Source of the DNA: Candidatus Heimdallarchaeota archaeon | GTDB taxonomy: Archaea; Asgardarchaeota; Heimdallarchaeia; Hodarchaeales; Hodarchaeaceae | Direction: 5' to 3' | NCBI GenBank assembly: GCA_020353515.1 | Contig: CP070695.1 | Location: forward strand, 2,578,155 to 2,642,154 | Length of the DNA stretch: 64,000 bases | Part shown: positions 3,787 to 14,394 of the stretch, piece by piece | Layout: each line of letters opens with the position of its first letter | Position numbering within the stretch: position 1 is the first letter of the stretch | Position numbers and translations under genes: made by a program | The notes under the pieces: generated by a model | Databases searched by the model: none | Seen by the model: only the letters and a program-made list of their open reading frames with translations | What the model was told of the DNA's origin: nothing

Positions 3787-6147
3787 TTATATTACGATCT
3801 CTCGACTACGAGTTGTATATGTCATTAATTCTTGGGAAAACAACTCGACTAGGTTTTCATTAGCGGTAATTACTCCGATTAATCCTTCTTTTTCTGGATG
3901 TTTAGGTTCAGGACAAACCAACAGCTCTTCAGAATCACGAATGCAACCCCAAAAATCCACTGTGTCCAGTTGTTTTAGCCTAACATTAGCAGATGATAAA
4001 ATTTTCTTTAGTGTTGACTCAGGAACTTTTCTAAAGTCTCCAATAATACTTATCCGAGTCCTTGTTGGTAGTTTAGAGGCTGTAATTAAGGTTTGGAGCT
4101 CTGGACGAGGCATTAGGATAGTCAAAGATGCCTTTGCTCGTAATGTCAAGTCTCTTAGCATCATTATAATAGCTGTTTCTCCAATAACTAAATCAGTAGA
4201 GAGAAAAGAAGGCTCTATATCTGAAATATCGACAGCTTGTGATAATTCAGAGATTTTATTAAGTTTTTGTTTCATCTCTTTAATAGAAAAGGATAAAGCG
4301 GATATCTCATGCTCTAATTGCTGCTCAACTTTGGTTATCTGAGAATTTAGAATCTCTTTAGTTCTATTCAAAGTTAAATTAACCTCATCTGACTGGGCGT
4401 TTGCAAAATTTGCTGTAAAAGCTTTTAGACCAGAAACATACACATCAAACTTGTTTTCTAGATCAGTGACCTTTGTCAGTACACTCTTCAATCCTTCGGC
4501 AGAATTTTCACTTAACTCATCGATGTCACTTTGTAAGCCCTTAAAACTGCTTTTTTCCACATCAAAAACTGGTTCCTTTTCAAGATATTCCTTTAAATTA
4601 GCTTCAAACTCTTTTTCGGTTTGTTGGACTAAAATAAAGAGATTATCAAGAAAATCAGTACTCAACTCTTCTAATTTTTTGTTGAAACCATTTACTTTTT
4701 CATTAAAAACAGATTCGCCAGCCTCGATTTGTGTTTTCATCCCCTGATTTTTAGTGTGGAGAAATTCTTTGAACGATGTTCTAAATTCAGAGCAGATTTT
4801 CAATTTAATTTCTTGTAGGTTGCGTGAAAGGAGTTTTACTTCTTCATCTAGTATCTTTCGTACTTCATTTATGCCGATTTCAGTTGCTTGTACAATTTCA
4901 TCCTCTATTTCATTCAATGTGTTATTCAATCTGTCAATATCTTCTAGAATCTTTGATTGCTCTTTTAAGGTCTGTAAAATCGTTCTTCTATTTTCATCTA
5001 TTTTAGTTAGATTAGAAATAAACTCTTCTTTCCCTTTAAACAATTTTCTACTCTGTATATCGTCTATTGAGCTTTTTAACAAAGGTTCTATGTTATTAAG
5101 CCCATTTTCTAGGCCTGAATAAAGATTCCTCACCGTATCATCAATTTCTTTATATCCTTGCCTTGTGTCAAGGAAGTTTGATTTTTTCTGGTGAGCATTT
5201 GACTTGAGATTTTCAAGTAATGAGTTTCTCTTTTCGATTTTCTCATTAAAAACTTTTTCTTCATCTAAACGATCGGATTCAAATTGGTTAAGCACTTCAT
5301 CCATATTCTCTGAATGTTCTCTTATTTGGTTGTCAATACTAATCATTTCGGACTCAAGATTTGCCTTATTTTCCCTCATGAGTTTTTCAAGGTCATTATT
5401 TGTCATTTCAGAAAGAGTTTCAAATTTCTGTGTTATTTCGTCTGTGTATGGACTGAAAATACCGGAGATATCCTCTAGTTTTGTAAGATTTTGTTTAGTG
5501 ATTTCTTTATTTAGTTCTTCAAAACGCTCTATTGTGTTTTGAACCTTGATTTTAAGTTCCTCATTATTCTTTTGGATTTTAGTATTTGTAAATTCTGCTG
5601 TTGTTCGTAAACTATCTGTTAATTCATTGAAGTTCAATTTAATTGGGGATAAGCTCTCAGAGAAATCATCTTCTAATTTAATTATATATTGTTGATTCTT
5701 TTCTGTTGTTTCAGCAAAAATTTCAGAAATCTGCTTTATATCTTCCTGAAAACCAGTTGATGCTTCTTTTCGAATGTTTACTAGAGTAAATGGATCATAT
5801 GCGAGAAAAAATGCCTTTAAAAAAGGTTCCAAGGCAATATAGCGTCCCACTTTCCCAGGGATTCTTTTTGCTAATTTACTTCCTTCTAGAATTAGAAGTG
5901 CTTCTTGTGTTTTTATATAATCCAATCCTGATAATAAACTGATTTGGCCAAGAGTTGCCATACCTAGAGAAAGTAAACTTAAGTATACTTTTCCTTGATC
6001 ATCATCAGTTAACCCAAGAATTGGGATAATTGCTTTAATTTCTTCTGAAGATATCTTCAGTCCAACCATTATCCTTTCCAACCTTTCTGTATTTTTTTCA
6101 CTAGTGTCCATGTGATTAGTTAGAATAATAGATCTTTCTTCAAACAA
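3787..6147 (-). CDS. TrmB-type wHTH + long coiled coil + PLD-like TrmB C-terminal domain
   Basis: N-term LGLTDDDQGKVYLSLLSLGMATLGQISLLSGL...GKVGRYIALEP is TrmB HTH; ~500 aa heptad-rich middle; C-term IGETAIIMMLRDLTLRAKASLTILMP. Confidence 0.7.
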   Translation of the reverse strand: MFEERSIILTNHMDTSEKNTERLERIMVGLKISSEEIKAIIPILGLTDDDQGKVYLSLLSLGMATLGQISLLSGLDYIKTQEALLILEGSKLAKRIPGKVGRYIALEPFLKAFFLAYDPFTLVNIRKEASTGFQEDIKQISEIFAETTEKNQQYIIKLEDDFSESLSPIKLNFNELTDSLRTTAEFTNTKIQKNNEELKIKVQNTIERFEELNKEITKQNLTKLEDISGIFSPYTDEITQKFETLSEMTNNDLEKLMRENKANLESEMISIDNQIREHSENMDEVLNQFESDRLDEEKVFNEKIEKRNSLLENLKSNAHQKKSNFLDTRQGYKEIDDTVRNLYSGLENGLNNIEPLLKSSIDDIQSRKLFKGKEEFISNLTKIDENRRTILQTLKEQSKILEDIDRLNNTLNEIEDEIVQATEIGINEVRKILDEEVKLLSRNLQEIKLKICSEFRTSFKEFLHTKNQGMKTQIEAGESVFNEKVNGFNKKLEELSTDFLDNLFILVQQTEKEFEANLKEYLEKEPVFDVEKSSFKGLQSDIDELSENSAEGLKSVLTKVTDLENKFDVYVSGLKAFTANFANAQSDEVNLTLNRTKEILNSQITKVEQQLEHEISALSFSIKEMKQKLNKISELSQAVDISDIEPSFLSTDLVIGETAIIMMLRDLTLRAKASLTILMPRPELQTLITASKLPTRTRISIIGDFRKVPESTLKKILSSANVRLKQLDTVDFWGCIRDSEELLVCPEPKHPEKEGLIGVITANENLVELFSQELMTYTTRSREIVI

Positions 6148-6576: not shown

Positions 6577-7131
6577 ATGAAAGTCTGTTTGCTAGGCGAT
6601 GGTGCTGTAGGAAAAACTGCTTTACGCGAGCGGTATTTAGGTAAGCAATTTTCTAGTGGATACGTGATGACGATAGGAGCAGACTTTGCTGTTAAGAAAA
6701 CAAAGATTCAAACTGAAGAAGGAGAAAAAGACGTCAAATTTCAAATCTGGGATCTCGCAGGACAACCTCGATTCAATAGTGTCCGAGAACTCTATTACAA
6801 GGGTTCTCATGGAGGACTATTGGTTTTTGATATCACGCGACGAGACTCTTTTACTAATCTAAATAATTGGATAGACGAACTATACAAGAATTCTGGAAGA
6901 GGAGCAATGCCTGTCGCCGTTTTAGGAAACAAAGTGGATCTTAGGAATGAAGTGGATGACAGTGTCACTCACGAGGAGGGGATGGAATATGCTGAAAATC
7001 TCAAAAAGGAGCTACAATTCAATTGTGATATTCCCTACTTAGAAACTTCAGCAAAAACTGGTGAGAATGTAGATGAGTCATTTGCTATGTTGGCTCATAA
7101 TATCAGAGAATTTTTAATGCAATTGAAATAA
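6577..7131 (+). CDS. Rab-like small GTPase
   Basis: G1 GDGAVGKT, G2 TIGADF, G3 WDLAGQ, G4 NKVD, G5 ETSAK; no C-terminal Cys prenylation motif. Confidence 0.95.
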   Translation: MKVCLLGDGAVGKTALRERYLGKQFSSGYVMTIGADFAVKKTKIQTEEGEKDVKFQIWDLAGQPRFNSVRELYYKGSHGGLLVFDITRRDSFTNLNNWIDELYKNSGRGAMPVAVLGNKVDLRNEVDDSVTHEEGMEYAENLKKELQFNCDIPYLETSAKTGENVDESFAMLAHNIREFLMQLK

Positions 7132-7148
7132 ATGAGAGCGACCTACGA

Positions 7149-7721
7149 TTGGTCACTATTCTTCGAATTGGTCATCGAATCAAACGAGATAAGAGAATAA
7201 CTACTCATTTGGCTCTTGTAGCACGAGCTTTTGGGGTGGAACGTTTAGTCATCGCTGGAGATAAAGACGAAAATTTACTTAACACACTTGCAAAAGTTAA
7301 TTCTGAATGGGGAGGAAACTTACAACTAAAATTAATCCCTTATGATGATTGGAAAACGTTTATTCATAACTGGAAAGCTGACACGAGAAAAAGAATTGTA
7401 CATCTCACAATGTATGGAGAAAACCTTTCTATTTTTGAGAAATCAAAAGAATTTTTAAGTTTGAAAAAACTATCACAGGGGTCTTCTGACCTTTTAGTGG
7501 TAGTTGGAGGTGAAAAAATTCCTGGTAAGGTTTTTAAAATTGCTGATTGGAATATTGCCATTTCTAACCAGCCTCATTCAGAAGTAGCATCTCTTGCAGT
7601 TTTTCTGGATCATATAAAAGACAATGCCTTACAAATACAGTTTTCAAATGCTATTAAACAGATTATTCCCTCAATGGAAGGTAATAAGATTTTATTAGGA
7701 AATAGGAAGAATGGAAAGTAA
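7149..7721 (+). CDS. trm56: tRNA (cytidine56-2'-O)-methyltransferase (SPOUT)
   Basis: LRIGHRIKRDKRITTHLALVARAFG, VHLTMYG, VVGGEKIP, NQPHSEVASLAVFLD. Confidence 0.95.
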   Translation: MVTILRIGHRIKRDKRITTHLALVARAFGVERLVIAGDKDENLLNTLAKVNSEWGGNLQLKLIPYDDWKTFIHNWKADTRKRIVHLTMYGENLSIFEKSKEFLSLKKLSQGSSDLLVVVGGEKIPGKVFKIADWNIAISNQPHSEVASLAVFLDHIKDNALQIQFSNAIKQIIPSMEGNKILLGNRKNGK

Positions 7722-8226
7722 AAGAAAAGTCCAGATCGGTATTATCGGAGATTCAAAGATAAGGAACAAAAATCAATATGAGATTTGTTATGAGATTGGA
7801 AAAGAAGTCGCTCTAGCAGATGCAATTTTAATTTGTGGGGGACGTGGAGGAGTTATGGCTGCTGCTTGTAAAGGTGTTTATGACGCAGGGGGGATTTCAG
7901 TTGGCATATTACCCGAGGATGAGAATGATCCCGAGGTTAATGAATATATAACCGTTAGAATCCCCACTTTTTTGCATTGGGCACGAAATGTCTTAGTCCC
8001 CCTAGCCTCAGACGGTGTGATCGCCTGTGGAGGTGGTGCGGGAACTTTGAGTGAATTAGCTTTTACTTGGATGAGGGAAAAACCATTGGTTTGTATAAAT
8101 TCAGTTTCAGGATGGAGTCGGGAAATTAGTGAACGTGGATATATAGACCATCGAAGTTCGAAAGGTCAAATTTTGACTGCAAAAACGGGATCGGAGGCGG
8201 TCATGAAAGTGCTAGAGGCAATTTAA
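7711..8226 (+). CDS. TIGR00725-type LOG/Smf-like nucleotide-binding protein
   Basis: LICGGRGGVMAAACKG, GILP, ARN, GGGAGTLSE. Confidence 0.85.
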   Translation: MESKRKVQIGIIGDSKIRNKNQYEICYEIGKEVALADAILICGGRGGVMAAACKGVYDAGGISVGILPEDENDPEVNEYITVRIPTFLHWARNVLVPLASDGVIACGGGAGTLSELAFTWMREKPLVCINSVSGWSREISERGYIDHRSSKGQILTAKTGSEAVMKVLEAI

Positions 8227-9056
8227 GGCCTAAATAATGAAAGAAGTCCAGATTGCGATTTACCACTAAAAATTTCGAAAAGACCATCACATAATCCCTT
8301 TAATAAGCCATCTTTTTTAGAATTAATTAAATCAGAATAATCTGATATTGTAGAATGGAACTCCGAATGATTATTTGTCTGTACTGCGCCAAAGATTCTC
8401 GAAGCAATCTCATAATAGTTTTTCGATTCAGAATCATAGGAATCGATCGGTTCTTCAATTGAATGGAGATATTTACCACAGCTTTCTATTTCATAAGCAT
8501 TAATTTCAGCAAGGGTTAAATACGCTCTCATTTTCGGAGAGAGAGAGGATAGTTCATTATACCAAGAGTTTAATGTCTCAAAACAGGACACATAATCCTT
8601 CTTATAACAGAGAATTCCTGCATAACAGAAATAAAGATCAGATATTACACTTTTATTGAAATTTGTCTTACTAACAAAATTATCTAAATATGAAAGGAAT
8701 TCTGATACTTGAAAAGCTTTTTCTACCATTATCTGATTACAAAAGGTTTGAATACAGTTTTCTAGATTCTCCTCTCTAAATAAAGCAAAAAATATTGGAA
8801 TTAAATCAGCAAAGGTATGTTCTTTAATTTTTGGACGGATACTAGTAATAAGACTAAGTCCCAAATTACACGCTAGTTTTTCTTGTTTTCCTGTTGCAAA
8901 AAGAGGAATGGTGTTAGAAAGGATCATTTTAGCATGATCAGGGTTATTAAAAAGAATTGTTCTTTGAATAGCTCCTTTCAACATTTGGAACCCATCGAAC
9001 CAGTGGCCTTGTTTGAGCTCATCCAATCCTCTTTCAAACCAAGGATCTTTTTTCAT
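8223..9056 (-). CDS. Alpha-solenoid protein with Get4-like N-terminus (tentative)
   Basis: All-helical; N-terminal ~70 aa resembles the eukaryotic Get4/TRC35 N-terminal helices (see finding). Confidence 0.5.
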   Translation of the reverse strand: MKKDPWFERGLDELKQGHWFDGFQMLKGAIQRTILFNNPDHAKMILSNTIPLFATGKQEKLACNLGLSLITSIRPKIKEHTFADLIPIFFALFREENLENCIQTFCNQIMVEKAFQVSEFLSYLDNFVSKTNFNKSVISDLYFCYAGILCYKKDYVSCFETLNSWYNELSSLSPKMRAYLTLAEINAYEIESCGKYLHSIEEPIDSYDSESKNYYEIASRIFGAVQTNNHSEFHSTISDYSDLINSKKDGLLKGLCDGLFEIFSGKSQSGLLSLFRP

Positions 9057-9361
9057 TTTTATTCTCCTTTAGCGGTAACTCTAAATGGTCTCTTGAATTC
9101 TAACGCCATGAAATATTTAAACAAAAATCTCTATGAAATAAACAGAGAAATCCCTTTGAGTGTTATTCCTATCCTATTAATTGACATCTGGATACCTTAT
9201 CATCTTCCTAAATTTAGAATCAATAGATTCTAAAAAACATAAAAAGAATGATTTTAAAATAACGCGCGAATAACCAATTAAAACAGTTATAATAATATAT
9301 TTAACTAGCAAGAACTATCAAGCTTTATAAAATCGTAACGGGTATAGAGTGTTGATATACT

Positions 9362-10303
9362 TTGAGTGATTCCGAATTTGTTAAGAAATGGTCTGTAGAA
9401 GATGATGGCACTTTAACTCCCGTCTCTCTTTCTTCGATGTCAGATCTTGCTAATGATAGTGTTTACATTATCGTTGATGAAAACGCGCGGAAAATTTTCA
9501 TCTGGAAAGGTGAGAAAGCACCTGTACGGAGAAAATTTATATCAGCAAAAGCCGCACAGCAAATGCGACAAGAAAAGTACGGAATGGTTTACCGAATAGA
9601 AAGTCTCGACCCAGAATTAGAAGGTGCTGATTTCCTTGCGATTTTTGGTGCAAAACCTGCGCCAAAGGAAGCAGCAGCAGCAGGAGTTTCAGGATCAGAG
9701 GTTTTTACAAAACCAACTCCAGCTCCAACTCCAGCTCCAATGCAAAAACCTGCTGCAGCACCTACACGCGCCCCTACTGCAGCACCCACACGCACCCCTA
9801 CTGCAGCACCTACACGCGCCCCTACTGCAGCACCCACACGCACCCCTACTGCAGCACCTACACGCGCCCCCGCTGCAGCACCCACACACATTCCCACGCC
9901 AGCTGCAAAACCAGCTCCAAGAGTTGTGAAAGAAACTGAAGTAGTAGTCACAGAACCTGTAAAGTCAGTAACACCAACCACTCTGGACGAAGTATCTATA
10001 AAACTGAAGGAAATCGAAATACCAGATGATATGGAACGGGAAATTATCATTATTGGCAATATGGTCTTTTCTGCGATTAAAGAGCATTTAGCTCTTTTTT
10101 CAAAAGATGTTGTGAAATTAGAGCCTATGGATGACTTACCCTCTGGAATTTTTCCCGCTGCTCACTATCAAGTCAGACTTTTTATTGAAGATGGAAGAGT
10201 CATATTCACTGAGCTATTAAGACAAAAGACCCGCTCTGAGAGAGATGAATTCATTGACGATATGCGAAAATCTCTCCAAGATTTATCAAAAATGGGAATA
10301 TAA
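9362..10303 (+). CDS. Asgard single-domain gelsolin with Pro/Thr linker and C-terminal X domain (1DGelX-like)
   Basis: Gelsolin motif DSVYIIVDENARKIFIWKGEKAPVRRKFISAKAAQQM...EGADFLAIF; C-terminal MEREIIIIGN...LPSGIF...YQVRLFIE block. Confidence 0.85.
   Translation: MSDSEFVKKWSVEDDGTLTPVSLSSMSDLANDSVYIIVDENARKIFIWKGEKAPVRRKFISAKAAQQMRQEKYGMVYRIESLDPELEGADFLAIFGAKPAPKEAAAAGVSGSEVFTKPTPAPTPAPMQKPAAAPTRAPTAAPTRTPTAAPTRAPTAAPTRTPTAAPTRAPAAAPTHIPTPAAKPAPRVVKETEVVVTEPVKSVTPTTLDEVSIKLKEIEIPDDMEREIIIIGNMVFSAIKEHLALFSKDVVKLEPMDDLPSGIFPAAHYQVRLFIEDGRVIFTELLRQKTRSERDEFIDDMRKSLQDLSKMGI
9753..9896 (+). repeat. Coding tandem repeat, 24-bp unit (TAAPTR[A/T]P) x~6 with 48-bp superperiod
   Basis: ctgcagcacctacacgcgccccta alternates with ctgcagcacccacacgcaccccta. 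Confidence 0.9.
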
Positions 10304-10325
10304 TTAATCTTTTGGAGAACCTAAA

Positions 10326-10865
10326 GTGCCTGGAGAAGAATACCTGCTCAAAATTTGTGCTATTGGGTCTGGTAGTGTAGGAAAAACCTCCCTCATTAGA
10401 AGGTTTGCAGAGGGAAAGTTTACAACTAATTATTTACCTACCCTAGGAGTAGACATCACAACAAAACAGATTCAAGTTGAATCTAACAATATTAAGCTGA
10501 TACTGGTGGATACTGCGGGTCAGGAGTTTTTTGGCAAACTACGACCAAGTTATTATCGGGGGGCGTCTGCATGTCTCATAATGTTTGCTTTAAATGAAAA
10601 ACCCTCATTTGAAGCCATCCCTGATTGGTTAGCGGAATTTCGGAAACATATTCCGGATTCTGCAGTTCCAATTGCCCTGGCTGGAAATAAGAAAGATCTT
10701 ACTGATCAGCGCCAGATATCTACTGATGAAGCCCATACACTAGCAAAAACATATGATATGACATATTATGAGACATCTGCTAAATTGGGTGGTTCTGAGA
10801 TCGAAGAAATATTTGTTGGCTTAACCAAACGTGTATTACAAAAGAAGCAAGAAAATAACATTTAG
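10326..10865 (+). CDS. Rab-like small GTPase
   Basis: G1 GSGSVGKT, G2 PTLGVD, G3 DTAGQE, YYRGA, G4 NKKD, G5 ETSAK. Confidence 0.95.
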   Translation: MPGEEYLLKICAIGSGSVGKTSLIRRFAEGKFTTNYLPTLGVDITTKQIQVESNNIKLILVDTAGQEFFGKLRPSYYRGASACLIMFALNEKPSFEAIPDWLAEFRKHIPDSAVPIALAGNKKDLTDQRQISTDEAHTLAKTYDMTYYETSAKLGGSEIEEIFVGLTKRVLQKKQENNI

Positions 10866-10903
10866 AAGACATTTTCAACGAAAGAAAATCTCAGGGATTA
10901 ACA

Positions 10904-11656
10904 ATGCAAGCAAATTCCGACTTTGAGGTCATTAAGAGAGACCATCAAGGGGTTCCAGTTGTCAAAATAGTTTTTTGGGGGCCGACTTTGGCAGGAAAAA
11001 CAACAGCACTCACTATTACAAAAGTATTAAAGAGTCTTGAAGATCCTGAGAATGTTTACAAATTTTTAAAGTTAGAAGATCCCACAGGTAGGACTTTGTT
11101 CTTCGATCAAGCAATTTTTGGTGTAGGTAGAACCGCAGCAGGATTACCAATTTTGAAGTATCATCTTTTCACTGTTCCTGGTCAAGAACGGCATGCTGGT
11201 CAACGAAAAGTGGTCTTACGCGGAGCACATGGTTTAATTGTTGTTGTTGACTCTGAAAAATCACGATGGGAAGAAAATAAATTTTCATTACAAGAAATTA
11301 ACACTCTTGCTGGTGATAAACTGGCCAGTGGAGCCCTTCCATATCACATTATGTTAAATAAAATGGATCTTCCCAAAGAACAGCGAATATCGTCATTAGA
11401 GGTAGGAAAACTACTTAGTGAATCGGGAGTAGTAGGAAGTCTTCGAGATGCAGCCGTTCGAATAGTTGAAGTGTCCTGTCTCGAAGCCAGGGATGATCTA
11501 AAGAAACTACTTTCACAAAGTGATCGAAGTAAGATTGTTGATGCCGATGGAAAACTGAAAAAAGAAATTCGACCAATGAGCGTTACTCGAGTTATCAAAT
11601 CAGTTGAAAGCTTAATTCGTGAAATAATTATCCAGATGATGAAACAACAAAGTTAA
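10904..11656 (+). CDS. MglA-family small GTPase
   Basis: KIVFWGPTLAGKTT, RTLFFD, TVPGQ (MglA-type G3), NKMDL. Confidence 0.85.
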   Translation: MQANSDFEVIKRDHQGVPVVKIVFWGPTLAGKTTALTITKVLKSLEDPENVYKFLKLEDPTGRTLFFDQAIFGVGRTAAGLPILKYHLFTVPGQERHAGQRKVVLRGAHGLIVVVDSEKSRWEENKFSLQEINTLAGDKLASGALPYHIMLNKMDLPKEQRISSLEVGKLLSESGVVGSLRDAAVRIVEVSCLEARDDLKKLLSQSDRSKIVDADGKLKKEIRPMSVTRVIKSVESLIREIIIQMMKQQS

Positions 11657-11679
11657 TTACCACAACTTTTTTCTCTTTT

Positions 11680-12357
11680 TTGTTTTCTCAGTCTTCCAAT
11701 TCTATATTAAGCCAGATTTGGAGAGTCATCAGCGTGAGAATCTCAATAACTGATCCCCATATGATTTCAATTGCTGTAAAAGAGTTTAAAAATGGGTCAA
11801 TCGTGGTATTTCCGACAGATACAAGTTATGGACTAGGGACCGTTGGATTAAGATGGAATAACAGTAATATTCGACGAATATACGAAATTAAATCAAGGCC
11901 AATTGATCATCCTCTCAGTCTCCTTGTCACAAAGGAGATGATTTCAAGTTATATTAAGATAAATCCTCTAATTAAAAAGATTTTATCTAAATATTGGCCT
12001 GGTGGCCTCACAGCTATTTTTTCATGTGAAACCAAAGGTTCTCAGGCATTATCCCCACTACTGAATTTTAAAAATCCCCAAAAAATTGGATTTCGTGTTC
12101 CCAATCACGACCTTTTACTAAAGATAATTGAAAAGGTTGGTAGTCCAATCATCGGTACTTCTGCAAATAAATCAGGTTCAAATCCAAAATATGATCTCCA
12201 TTCAATAAGTCAAGAATTTTCTCAAGAGACCATTCATCTTTGGATTGATGCAGGAAAATTAACTGAAATTCCCCCATCTACCGTAGTTGATCTTACCGAT
12301 CCATCGAACCCTATTCTTCTTCGAAGAGGAAGTGTCACATTTGAAGAAAGTATATGA
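11680..12357 (+). CDS. sua5: L-threonylcarbamoyladenylate synthase (Sua5/YrdC); probable start GTG ~11734
   Basis: VFPTDTSYGL, IYEIKSRP, YWPGGLT, GFRVP, TSANKSG, PSTVVDL. Confidence 0.95.
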   Translation: MFSQSSNSILSQIWRVISVRISITDPHMISIAVKEFKNGSIVVFPTDTSYGLGTVGLRWNNSNIRRIYEIKSRPIDHPLSLLVTKEMISSYIKINPLIKKILSKYWPGGLTAIFSCETKGSQALSPLLNFKNPQKIGFRVPNHDLLLKIIEKVGSPIIGTSANKSGSNPKYDLHSISQEFSQETIHLWIDAGKLTEIPPSTVVDLTDPSNPILLRRGSVTFEESI

Positions 12358-12393
12358 GGTAAGAATTGAATCTGAAACTTTAATAATCACATC

Positions 12394-14394
12394 ATGATGA
12401 AGAACGAATGGATAAGTATGCTTAGTCAAGAGACCTCAAGTGACATTCTTGTAATCCATCAGGACAGGATTATTTTCTCATCTGGTCAGGGGCCACTAGC
12501 AAGGCACTCAAAGATTAGTGCAACAGTAACACAAGTACTAACTCTGTTTTCTGAACGAATAATGAAGGGGGAACAAATTCACTTTATTCGGTTTGAAAAA
12601 CACCGCATGATCTTTTTATTCTCTCAAAATATCAAAGATGATAATCTCGTCGCCATTGTTTTGATTCCTATCGAACGGAGTCCCAGACAAGTTATCCCTG
12701 CTATGAGTATTATATTACGTATGCTTGAAGAATCCTTGAAGGGCAATATCGAAGATGCTCAAGCCCAACACCTAGATTGTTTTTACCAGATTCTTTCTTC
12801 TCCTGAAAAAGCCCTTTTTATTGTTCCGCGACAAGCAGATGGTATATTAGCTTCCCTTGTCATTTTAACTGCATTTGCTCATGATATGCGGCTGGGAATT
12901 CATCAAATTACCACAAATATGACCTTTGTTGATCCTAGAAATATGCAAGAACTCCATGAGGTTATAGAAAAATCGAAAACTAAGAGAATCCTTTCTTTCG
13001 TACCTCTTCCACTTGTAGAGGAGAATGAAAATGTCCTCTTTATTGGTTCAGATTTACCTCGCAGACAATACTTTTCAGCCCATCCAGGAGAGCGTATTTA
13101 TGATGTTATTAGTAGAATCTTTGGTAACCAATCTAATGCTGCTAAAATGAGAAATTTGATCTCTAATAATGATGCAAGAGAGCTTGCACACTCAATATCT
13201 ATGTTTCCTCCATCTGAAAATGATTTTATTCGAACAGAAATTTTGTTATCAACTGTATTACAGCCTGGAAAAGATATTATTGTAACAATGTCCTCCCCTG
13301 TTATGCAGAAACTACGAGAGTTAACTCCCACAGAACCAATTACTAGAGAAGCTCCAATTGAAGAGGAAATTCATGTTCCTAAGGAACCTATTATTACTGG
13401 AAAGCCTATTGTTGATGAAATTCCTATCGTCACTGAACCTAAAGTTCATAGAGAAGTTCCTGTAGTCAAAGAAATCCCTCCTATCACGCCTGAACTCGAT
13501 GAAATCAAACCTAAAGTAGAAGTAACCAAGGTTAAACAACCTGAATATCAGCAACCAATAGCTGAACCCATTTTTGAATTAGTAGCAGATCCAGACGCAT
13601 TTCCTCACGTAATTCCTGAAGAAACATCGGAAGTGGTCTCTGAACCTATCGAGTCTGTAGAAGCTATTGCAGTTTCGGATATTGGTAGTGATGTGCTAGC
13701 ACGATTAGATGAGGCAAGAGAACGTGGTTTTGAATATCGATTTGATTCAATCCCTCTAATACTTGACACTACTCCTTATCTTAGTAACATTCCAGGAAAT
13801 GTGAATATTCCTGCTGAGGAATCAACGATTACTCTAAGACTTTTTCAGGGGGAAGATAACCATCTTAATATCCACATTTATACAACTATCGATCGCCTAT
13901 CTGGTTTGAGAGACTCACTGGAGGATCTGACGATCAGAACTGGAGGAGAAATTCACCTAAAAAAGAATCATGTTTCTTTAACTGTCTTAATCGATAAACA
14001 ACAGATTGTCCTTCGAGCATTATTGTGGTTAAGCATTGTAGAGTATCTTACACAAGTCAGAATGGGATTAATGGAAGTATCAGAACTATTTAAAATTCCA
14101 AATGAAGGATCAATTTTAATAATTCCACCAAAAAGGGATTATATCAAGGATAAAATTCCTTCAAAATTCCAAAATTTTATAGAAGAATCAAAAATTCGTA
14201 ATCAATTTGAACAAGAGGACCTCTGGACTCTTGGAAAGTCTCAAAATGAAATCCTTTCACATCTAATGGCTCCTCTTAAGCAAGGAGACGGTGTGGTTTT
14301 TGTGGCTTCCGACAATAACCAAGAAATGGAGGAAATAGCTTTATTTCTACTATTTGTATCCGAAGCTTGTGGTATCGGATTTTCAAGATGGTAA
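12394..14394 (+). CDS. Large hypothetical protein with N-terminal longin-like domain and acidic Pro-rich central linker
   Basis: First ~120 aa show the beta-beta-alpha-beta-beta-beta-alpha pattern (ILVIHQDRIIFS / ISATVTQVLTLFSERIM / IHFIRFEKHRMIFLF / LVAIVLI). Confidence 0.55.
   Translation: MMKNEWISMLSQETSSDILVIHQDRIIFSSGQGPLARHSKISATVTQVLTLFSERIMKGEQIHFIRFEKHRMIFLFSQNIKDDNLVAIVLIPIERSPRQVIPAMSIILRMLEESLKGNIEDAQAQHLDCFYQILSSPEKALFIVPRQADGILASLVILTAFAHDMRLGIHQITTNMTFVDPRNMQELHEVIEKSKTKRILSFVPLPLVEENENVLFIGSDLPRRQYFSAHPGERIYDVISRIFGNQSNAAKMRNLISNNDARELAHSISMFPPSENDFIRTEILLSTVLQPGKDIIVTMSSPVMQKLRELTPTEPITREAPIEEEIHVPKEPIITGKPIVDEIPIVTEPKVHREVPVVKEIPPITPELDEIKPKVEVTKVKQPEYQQPIAEPIFELVADPDAFPHVIPEETSEVVSEPIESVEAIAVSDIGSDVLARLDEARERGFEYRFDSIPLILDTTPYLSNIPGNVNIPAEESTITLRLFQGEDNHLNIHIYTTIDRLSGLRDSLEDLTIRTGGEIHLKKNHVSLTVLIDKQQIVLRALLWLSIVEYLTQVRMGLMEVSELFKIPNEGSILIIPPKRDYIKDKIPSKFQNFIEESKIRNQFEQEDLWTLGKSQNEILSHLMAPLKQGDGVVFVASDNNQEMEEIALFLLFVSEACGIGFSRW

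Follow-up and report, generated by a model that had tools for sequence, protein, structure and literature searches.

Does the Get4 adaptor of the eukaryotic GET pathway have a relative in archaea? Get4/TRC35 is the adaptor through which tail-anchored membrane proteins are passed to the Get3 ATPase; Get3 is ancient, and Get4 and the pre-targeting step are treated as eukaryotic inventions. The question is raised by a gene for a 277-residue protein, P0001, on the minus strand of a 64,000-nucleotide stretch of DNA from Candidatus Heimdallarchaeota archaeon, an Asgard archaeon of the order Hodarchaeales. This whole stretch, here called the window, is G000:C1:2578155-2642154, and lies in a genome assembled as a single 4.94-Mb contig and 96% complete. 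A sequence-only reading of the window had proposed that the protein is a Get4/TRC35-like solenoid and possibly a precursor of the GET pre-targeting complex. Our comparisons point to P0001 as a probable, very distant relative of the eukaryotic adaptor: in profile-profile alignments both ends of its family resemble GET4 weakly yet specifically, and in collinear order. The gene and the parts of the protein that carry this likeness are as follows.

8223..9056, minus strand: gene for P0001, a 277-residue Get4-like alpha-solenoid (open reading frame and translation; stop codon included)
8832..9023, minus strand: N-terminal helices 1-4, residues 12-75, matched by hhalign to the GET4 N-terminal domain (WFDGFQM..GA.QR)
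8238..8387, minus strand: C-terminal helices, residues 224-273, matching the last Get4 helices (AVE...F...Y...D..L..L.D.I...F...GLF)
8232..8249, minus strand: C-terminal tail GL(F/L)SLF, residues 270-275, conserved and unstructured in the model

The reading frame opens with ATG. Because all homologues open with the same M-K-x-x-P-W N-terminus, this start codon is taken as correct. The N-terminal segment on which the sequence-only reading was built, which starts with ELKQGHWFDGFQMLKGAIQRT..., was found at residues 13-73 of the 277-residue reading frame at 8223-9056 on the minus strand. It had been compared with 61 residues given as human GET4, and these proved to be genuine: they retrieved 166 proteins, with PF04190 in 120 of 120 among the matches listed. 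The best match was 100% identical and primate GET4 98%; a partial Homo sapiens entry was 100% identical wherever it overlapped the segment. The gapless alignment of the two segments contains the 11 identities in 61 positions that had been listed (G, Q, M, R, A, L, F, Q, A, L, S), and the same register was reproduced by hhalign, which placed P0001 13-75 against GET4 33-95.

P0001 has 41 homologues at 45-79% identity, from sources named Hodarchaeales, Hodarchaeota or Heimdallarchaeota archaeon, and all the closest are annotated 'hypothetical protein'. The family is rare, with 17 clusters in 1.84 billion representatives. Searches with the family profile detected one copy in each of the 21 genomes (21/21) of the window's GTDB family and no match in two other genomes of the same order; sampled Asgard genomes outside the order gave no match either, with the exception of G025, which belongs to another Asgard class. 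The G025 homologue is a 284-residue reading frame (L057:6601-7452, minus strand), homologous to the P0001 family over its full length (hhalign probability, Prob, 96%, E 2.7e-9, 248 columns); a metagenome scan for this protein found a single copy, 91% identical. Its C-terminus is a Pro/Gly/Phe-rich tail (PTGFPGFPGMPFGGGV). A further homologue, of 290 residues, is encoded in G286 (L073:820-1689, minus strand; Prob 70%, E 3.9e-5), a genome of the same order as that of the window and of another family, and ends in GGLFPLF. These two reading frames are very divergent members of the P0001 family in two other Asgard lineages. Residues F20, Q24, G28, R32, Y179, L182, E184, N186, E189, D249, L252 and L255 are invariant in the P0001 family.

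To compare the family with GET4 we used a profile of the window's GTDB family (f1) and a pooled archaeal profile comprising f1 and the G025 and G286 lineages. The GET4 side was made up of bilaterian sequences, and no secondary-structure term was used. The pooled profile aligned with 41 bilaterian GET4 sequences over 238 collinear columns, 13-273 on 19-286 (P 8.2e-4, Prob 24%). Its Viterbi score of 30.4 was reached by none of 100 block shuffles (17.2 +/- 2.6, maximum 23.7). When the N-terminal 80 columns were aligned alone, residues 12-75 fell on GET4 columns 18-81 with a score of 28.5 (P 4.9e-4), and none of 60 block-shuffled GET4 profiles reached this value (16.0 +/- 2.9, maximum 25.4). The C-terminal 77 columns alone landed on the C-end of GET4 (columns 234-286; score 19.2, P 0.021; 1 of 60 shuffles reached it). 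The matches of the two ends are thus in the correct order, and each scores separately. TPR decoys from the same genome scored lower than the P0001 family: 13-21 with the archaeal profile and 15-27 with GET4. The G025 protein matched vertebrate GET4 at the N-terminus in the same register as P0001 (Prob 61%, E 8.2e-5), and the 41 non-redundant bilaterian sequences over 166 columns (Prob 68%, E 4.9e-5). Two other procedures were of no use for this comparison: a semi-global profile alignment with BLOSUM averages, which was uninformative as real and shuffled scores were both near zero, and a 'global' hhalign shuffle null, which gave short alignments only and is not a fair null.

At the level of single positions, 62 column pairs were at least 70% conserved in both families. 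The same consensus residue was present in 19 of them and a similar one in 38, though the shift null for these pairs is biased, since the real alignment had been optimised. Columns with the same consensus include Q24, M25, R32, C158, D249, D257, I259, F263 and G270. Near the N-terminus, W19-F20-D21-G22-x-Q24-M25...R32 aligns to Y-Y-E-A-H-Q-M...R of GET4, both motifs being invariant or nearly so in their own families, and the family-invariant F20, Q24 and R32 coincide with the GET4-invariant Y, Q and R. At the other end the conserved P0001/GET4 pairs are D249/D269, D257/D277, I259/I279, F263/F283 and G270/G296. The tail that follows was aligned to the GlfG/GGLLG stretch of GET4; its G270, S273 and F275 show conservation of 90% or more in the P0001 family, and it is a candidate docking peptide.

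The two divergent homologues extend the likeness to Pfam. The GET4 model aligned with the C-terminal half of the G025 protein (residues 133-260 on profile 131-233, collinear, E 0.0016) and of the G286 protein (residues 171-281 on profile 123-238, E 0.015), the latter being the sole GET4 match in its genome. Both matches, at 18.6 and 15.5 bits respectively, are below the gathering threshold of 30 bits, and P0001 itself gave no match; across 301 Asgard genomes only sub-threshold GET4 matches were obtained. Protein-language features gave the same family first place. Among the 30 Atlas clusters closest to P0001, 19 were PF04190 GET4 (score 0.92, 209-212 of 256 features shared), and for P0052, a family member 30% identical to P0001, 20 of 30 were GET4 (0.92, 211 shared). 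SNAP clusters trailed for both queries, at 0.79-0.89.

The sequence-only reading had also found the length and all-helical character in keeping with Get4, and here the prediction agreed with it. The AlphaFold2 model of P0001 (mean predicted local distance difference test score, pLDDT, 90.2; predicted template modelling score, pTM, 0.87) is all-helical, with about 15 helices in residues 5-275, and is a right-handed solenoid as modelled. The last 11 residues (267-277) have pLDDT below 50 and are predicted to be disordered. Get4 is an alpha-solenoid of 14-16 helices arranged in N- and C-terminal halves (bioRxiv 10.1101/154351). In a Foldseek search of the PDB with the P0001 model, TRC35 (6au8_A, E 4.1e-4) and Get4 (9ns5_B, E 5.5e-4) took ranks 1 and 2 by E-value, and the structural-alignment identity of Get4 to P0001 (12-16%) was the highest among the leading rows, against 8-11% for SNAP.

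Set beside the known Get4/TRC35 proteins (PF04190 GET4, formerly DUF410; structures 2WPV, 3LKU, 3LPZ, 4PWX, 6AU8, 7RU9 and 9NS5), P0001 is of like size (277 residues against about 290-330) and of the same solenoid class (about 15 helices against 14-16). WFDGFQM...R of its first helices corresponds to YYEAHQM...R in Get4, and D..L..L.D.I...F...GLF of its last helices to D..Y..YLD.I...FF...GLF. P0001 comes from an archaeon, Get4 being regarded as eukaryotic; it has neither the beta-hairpin of the fungal proteins nor TRC35's acidic extension at the C-terminus, and carries the conserved GLFxLF tail instead. Alpha/gamma-SNAP and Sec17 (PF14938; 1QQE, 2IFU and the 20S complexes) give no Pfam signal in the P0001 family. 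The PCI proteins (eIF3a, Rpn/CSN subunits, Thp1/Csn12), which resemble P0001 in their N-terminal helical-repeat parts, are much longer, have a winged-helix PCI end that P0001 does not, and are 8-10% identical to it with no sequence-level signal. Canonical TPR proteins (TPR_1/2/12) have helix-turn-helix repeats in common with P0001, the first helix pair of which fits the TPR consensus.

In eukaryotes the N-terminal region of Get4 binds Get3. A search of the genome for Get3/ArsA, suggested in the sequence-only reading, found one strong homologue (G000:C1:1350351-1351301, equivalent to L027:1501-2451; 317 residues, CxxC zinc motif, 280 bits), located 1.2 Mb from the Get4-like gene. Because 75 of 81 Asgard genomes sampled have a Get3 homologue, its co-occurrence with P0001 is a weak test of Get4 identity. 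The genome's Get3 has 44-50% identity to the Get3 proteins of other Asgard classes and is less close, at 41-42%, to those found in its own class beyond its family.

The suggested co-folding was also carried out, with a dimer of the genome's own Get3, two ATP, zinc and P0001, with alignments built for this analysis, in three runs and with three controls. The interaction prediction score from aligned errors (ipSAE) was 0.59, 0.55 and 0.52, and the best of the three controls gave 0.00; the verdict of the tool was 'weak support'. The runs shared at least 34% of their contacts, and the pLDDT of the partner was at least 81. Of the solved complexes 58 of 80 reach the mark applied, as do 2 of 110 mismatched pairs, and the range up to 0.60 holds only 7 of those 80 solved complexes, together with both of the mismatches that passed. 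Get3-Get4 complexes have already been solved, and the pass may reflect likeness of the modelled assembly to these rather than binding. As likeness to Get4 is itself in question, the co-fold is counted as modest support.

The genes around P0001 are relevant to what else the protein might do. They are listed here together with the adjacent intergenic region.

3787-6147: 786-residue protein, N-terminal TrmB-type winged helix followed by a coiled coil of about 500 residues
6577-7131: Ras-like GTPase
7149-7721: Trm56
7711-8226: SLOG/LDcluster4 gene, convergent with the Get4-like gene
9057..9361, no strand assigned: intergenic region of 305 bp, flanked by the Get4-like gene and the divergent gelsolin-like gene, from the gene layout
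9362-10303: gelsolin-like protein, divergent from the Get4-like gene
10326-10865: Ras-like GTPase
10904-11656: MglA/Arf-like GTPase
11680-12357: Sua5/YrdC
12394-14394: 666-residue protein with no Pfam family

The conserved cluster spans 6577-14394. On the downstream side of the Get4-like gene, SLOG, Trm56 and the first Ras-like GTPase are all convergent with it; the gelsolin-like gene and those beyond it are upstream. Gene order, including the divergent gelsolin-like gene, is kept at loci L016, L017 and L018, whose P0001 relatives are 59%, 32% and 30% identical, and SLOG is present at most of these loci. The synteny is absent at the G025 locus.

Several results weigh against kinship with Get4 or a function with Get3. 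The Pfam GET4 model had no match, at E up to 10, on P0001 or any of 28 relatives, nor anywhere in the P0001 genome, and a search of the PDB with the P0001-family profile returned no chain at E up to 10, though Get4 structures are present there. With f1 alone the likeness to GET4 was borderline (Prob 2-5%, P 0.009-0.047) and was equalled by 4 of 120 block shuffles, and region-wise hhalign gave no GET4 signal for the middle third of P0001 (residues 81-200). Structural comparison was equivocal: the template modelling score (TM-score) of P0001 to Get4 was only 0.30, with a root mean square deviation of 10-13 A, below the 0.44-0.46 obtained with Sec17 by Foldseek; Sec17 ranked first for the G025 model (E 2.4e-5); and a shape search of the ESM Atlas with P0001 returned generic bacterial TPR proteins only (TM up to 0.51). 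By Z and TM, Sec17 and eIF3a match or surpass Get4/TRC35. Judged by the model alone, P0001 is in the SNAP/Get4/PCI neighbourhood of TPR-like solenoids, with no choice among them. On the side of function, the Get3 co-fold is in the weak band and the tool reported no interface for it, and the conserved neighbours within the family are the Ras-like and MglA-like GTPases, the gelsolin-like protein, Trm56 and SLOG, never Get3. No match over the cut-off was found in the 96%-complete genome for Get5_N, Get5_C or SGTA_dimer, Bag6 not having been searched; a non-homologous partner may take their place. Get1/WRB (PF04420) is likewise without a match in the genome, which does encode EMC3/DUF106, a protein that many archaea have. 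Since P0001 fails the Pfam threshold and has no recognised Get5/Bag6 partner, we file it as Get4-like and not as a member of the Get4 family.

The proposal of a Get4-like solenoid, still the best description of the protein, is therefore supported in part, by the specific sequence signal, the language features and the bridging relatives, and weakened by the silence of Pfam GET4 and by fold searches in which SNAP, Sec17 and PCI proteins tie with Get4; of the suggested Foldseek comparison, the ranking by E-value favours Get4 and the TM-score does not. For the proposed precursor of the pre-targeting complex, there is a Get3 in the genome and a co-fold rated as weak support, set against the failure to find Get5, Sgt2 and Get1 and neighbours other than Get3; precursor status would be an interpretation of these facts. 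Two outcomes had been named as contrary to the proposal, the absence of a signal specific to Get4 and a failure to predict an interface with Get3, and neither came about.

As an alternative, P0001 could be a TPR-like scaffold peculiar to its lineage and not specially connected with Get4, serving as effector, adaptor or regulator with the neighbouring GTPases and gelsolin-like protein in an Asgard cytoskeleton or membrane-remodelling module. Its likeness to Get4 would then be the general likeness of TPR-type solenoids, and the many solenoid families at similar Z, together with the generic TPR proteins of the shape search, are in line with this. So are the weak cross-matches that Pfam GET4 makes with ordinary TPR proteins of other Asgard archaea, and the N-terminal motif, which in part (G-x-aromatic-aromatic-acidic-small...hydrophobic) coincides with the helix-turn-helix pattern generic to TPRs. 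Synteny kept even around the 30%-identical P0052 would fit a module of this kind, but because it is lost at the G025 locus, conservation within the family may reflect shared descent only. Moreover, TPR and SNAP models of Pfam match dozens of the genome's TPR proteins and not P0001; GET4 is the top language-feature family for two divergent members; both ends match GET4 collinearly, above shuffles and TPR decoys; and co-folding with Get3 gave weak support, at 0.55 with the controls at 0.00. We consider such a scaffold unlikely. The sequence signals apply equally to a true Get4 relative that has drifted in function, binding a partner other than Get3 or acting as a general chaperone scaffold, with the coupling to Get3 a eukaryotic innovation. 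The weak band of the co-fold and the failure to find Get5, Sgt2 or Get1 in the genome suit this explanation, as does the distribution of the family, confined as it is to a single GTDB family and two isolated divergent relatives. Get3 is far wider, at 75 of 81 genomes, and archaeal Get3 must therefore generally work without a P0001-like protein. Yet the best-conserved region shared with GET4 is the N-terminal domain, which binds Get3 in eukaryotes, and the co-fold controls were all 0.00, so that we hold functional drift of this sort to be decidedly unlikely.

A last alternative is an alpha-SNAP/Sec17-like adaptor that binds helical bundles of SNARE-like proteins and recruits an AAA ATPase of NSF/Cdc48 type. 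The higher TM-score of Sec17, its first place with the G025 model and the presence of SNAP clusters among the language-feature neighbours point this way, and SNARE-like proteins have been described in Heimdallarchaeota (bioRxiv 10.1101/810531). However, the Pfam SNAP model, which matched 43 stretches in the genome, all in TPR proteins, had none at the P0001 locus, and gave no match in the 28 members (best 25 of 30 families listed), in G025 or in G286. GET4 clusters stand above SNAP clusters for both language-feature queries, structural-alignment identity is higher for Get4, and it is to GET4 invariants that the N- and C-terminal motifs align. A SNAP-like adaptor is highly improbable on this evidence.

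We lean slightly towards a reading in which P0001 is a very divergent relative of Get4, with its N-terminal helices docking on Get3 and its C-terminal half and tail engaging another partner. In such a scheme the Get3 dimer of this genome, with ATP bound, would be contacted by the N-terminal helices, which carry the invariant F20, D21, Q24 and R32, and docking would hold Get3 ready for tail-anchored clients; the C-terminal half and the GLFxLF tail would recruit an upstream factor in place of Get5 or Bag6. Common descent with Get4, Get3 binding and a role in tail-anchored protein targeting are all things we infer from the comparisons above. A more far-reaching suggestion, which we make tentatively and rate a little short of an even chance, is that Get4-Get3 docking is pre-eukaryotic and arose in the lineage leading to Hodarchaeales and eukaryotes, with scattered and very divergent copies in two other Asgard lineages, that the archaeal Get4 readies Get3 for client loading, and that its C-terminal half and GLFxLF tail recruit a chaperone unrelated to Get5, Bag6 and Sgt2.

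Hodarchaeales have been placed as the sister order to eukaryotes (Eme et al. 2023, PMC10307638). If the relationship is true, a Hodarchaeales Get4 relative would add a membrane-protein-biogenesis factor to the eukaryotic signature proteins and would point to a regulated hand-off of tail-anchored clients to Get3 that began in the archaeal ancestor, and part of this 'eukaryotic' step may predate eukaryotes. In the literature searched we found no paper linking Get4 to Asgard archaea, and Get4 is unmentioned in the main texts of the surveys of eukaryotic signature proteins that were checked and in the supplements of Eme et al. 2023, the only supplements checked.

Other Pfam and single-model searches yielded little for P0001. 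Pfam gave nothing meaningful for it, and the 28 members had no GET4, SNAP or solid TPR match; TPR models scarcely match the family, reaching only single members at E 0.1 or worse. A single-sequence search of the PDB with P0001 returned chance matches only. P0054 (1426 residues, seven matched stretches) is a translated tandem repeat, and was dismissed as a chance match and not a relative.

Some sub-threshold GET4 matches elsewhere were not taken as Get4. Most of them are on ordinary TPR proteins, the 278-residue proteins at L014:3311-4147 and L015:4529-5359 being examples. A family of reading frames of about 630 residues in another Asgard family (f14) was likewise set aside. One of them, L006:934-2829 (minus strand, 632 residues), matches GET4 with residues 343-443 (profile 12-112, E 3e-5), below the cut-off and amid TPR matches; this part is preceded by a 340-residue N-terminal part with no known family, and the protein recurs in many f14 genomes. 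It may be a fused Get4-like domain or simply a TPR domain.

At the locus itself, the Get4-like gene overlaps the 3′ end of its convergent neighbour at all loci examined, by 4-24 bases: 8223-8226 in the window, 7817-7840 in L016, 2894-2911 in L017 and 7805-7816 in L018. The partner is SLOG, except in L018, where it is Trm56. As the 3′ ends overlap, there is no space for separate terminators. On the other side of the gene, the intergenic region at 9057..9361 presumably holds the promoters of both divergent genes, judging from the gene layout. In the gelsolin-like protein, the N-terminal gelsolin repeat (Pfam E 1.7e-4) is followed by a long linker of Pro/Thr/Ala repeats (PTAAPTRAPTAAPTRTP...) and then by a C-terminal domain with no Pfam match. 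A protein similar to the TrmB-type protein at 3787-6147 occupies the same relative place in L016 and L018.

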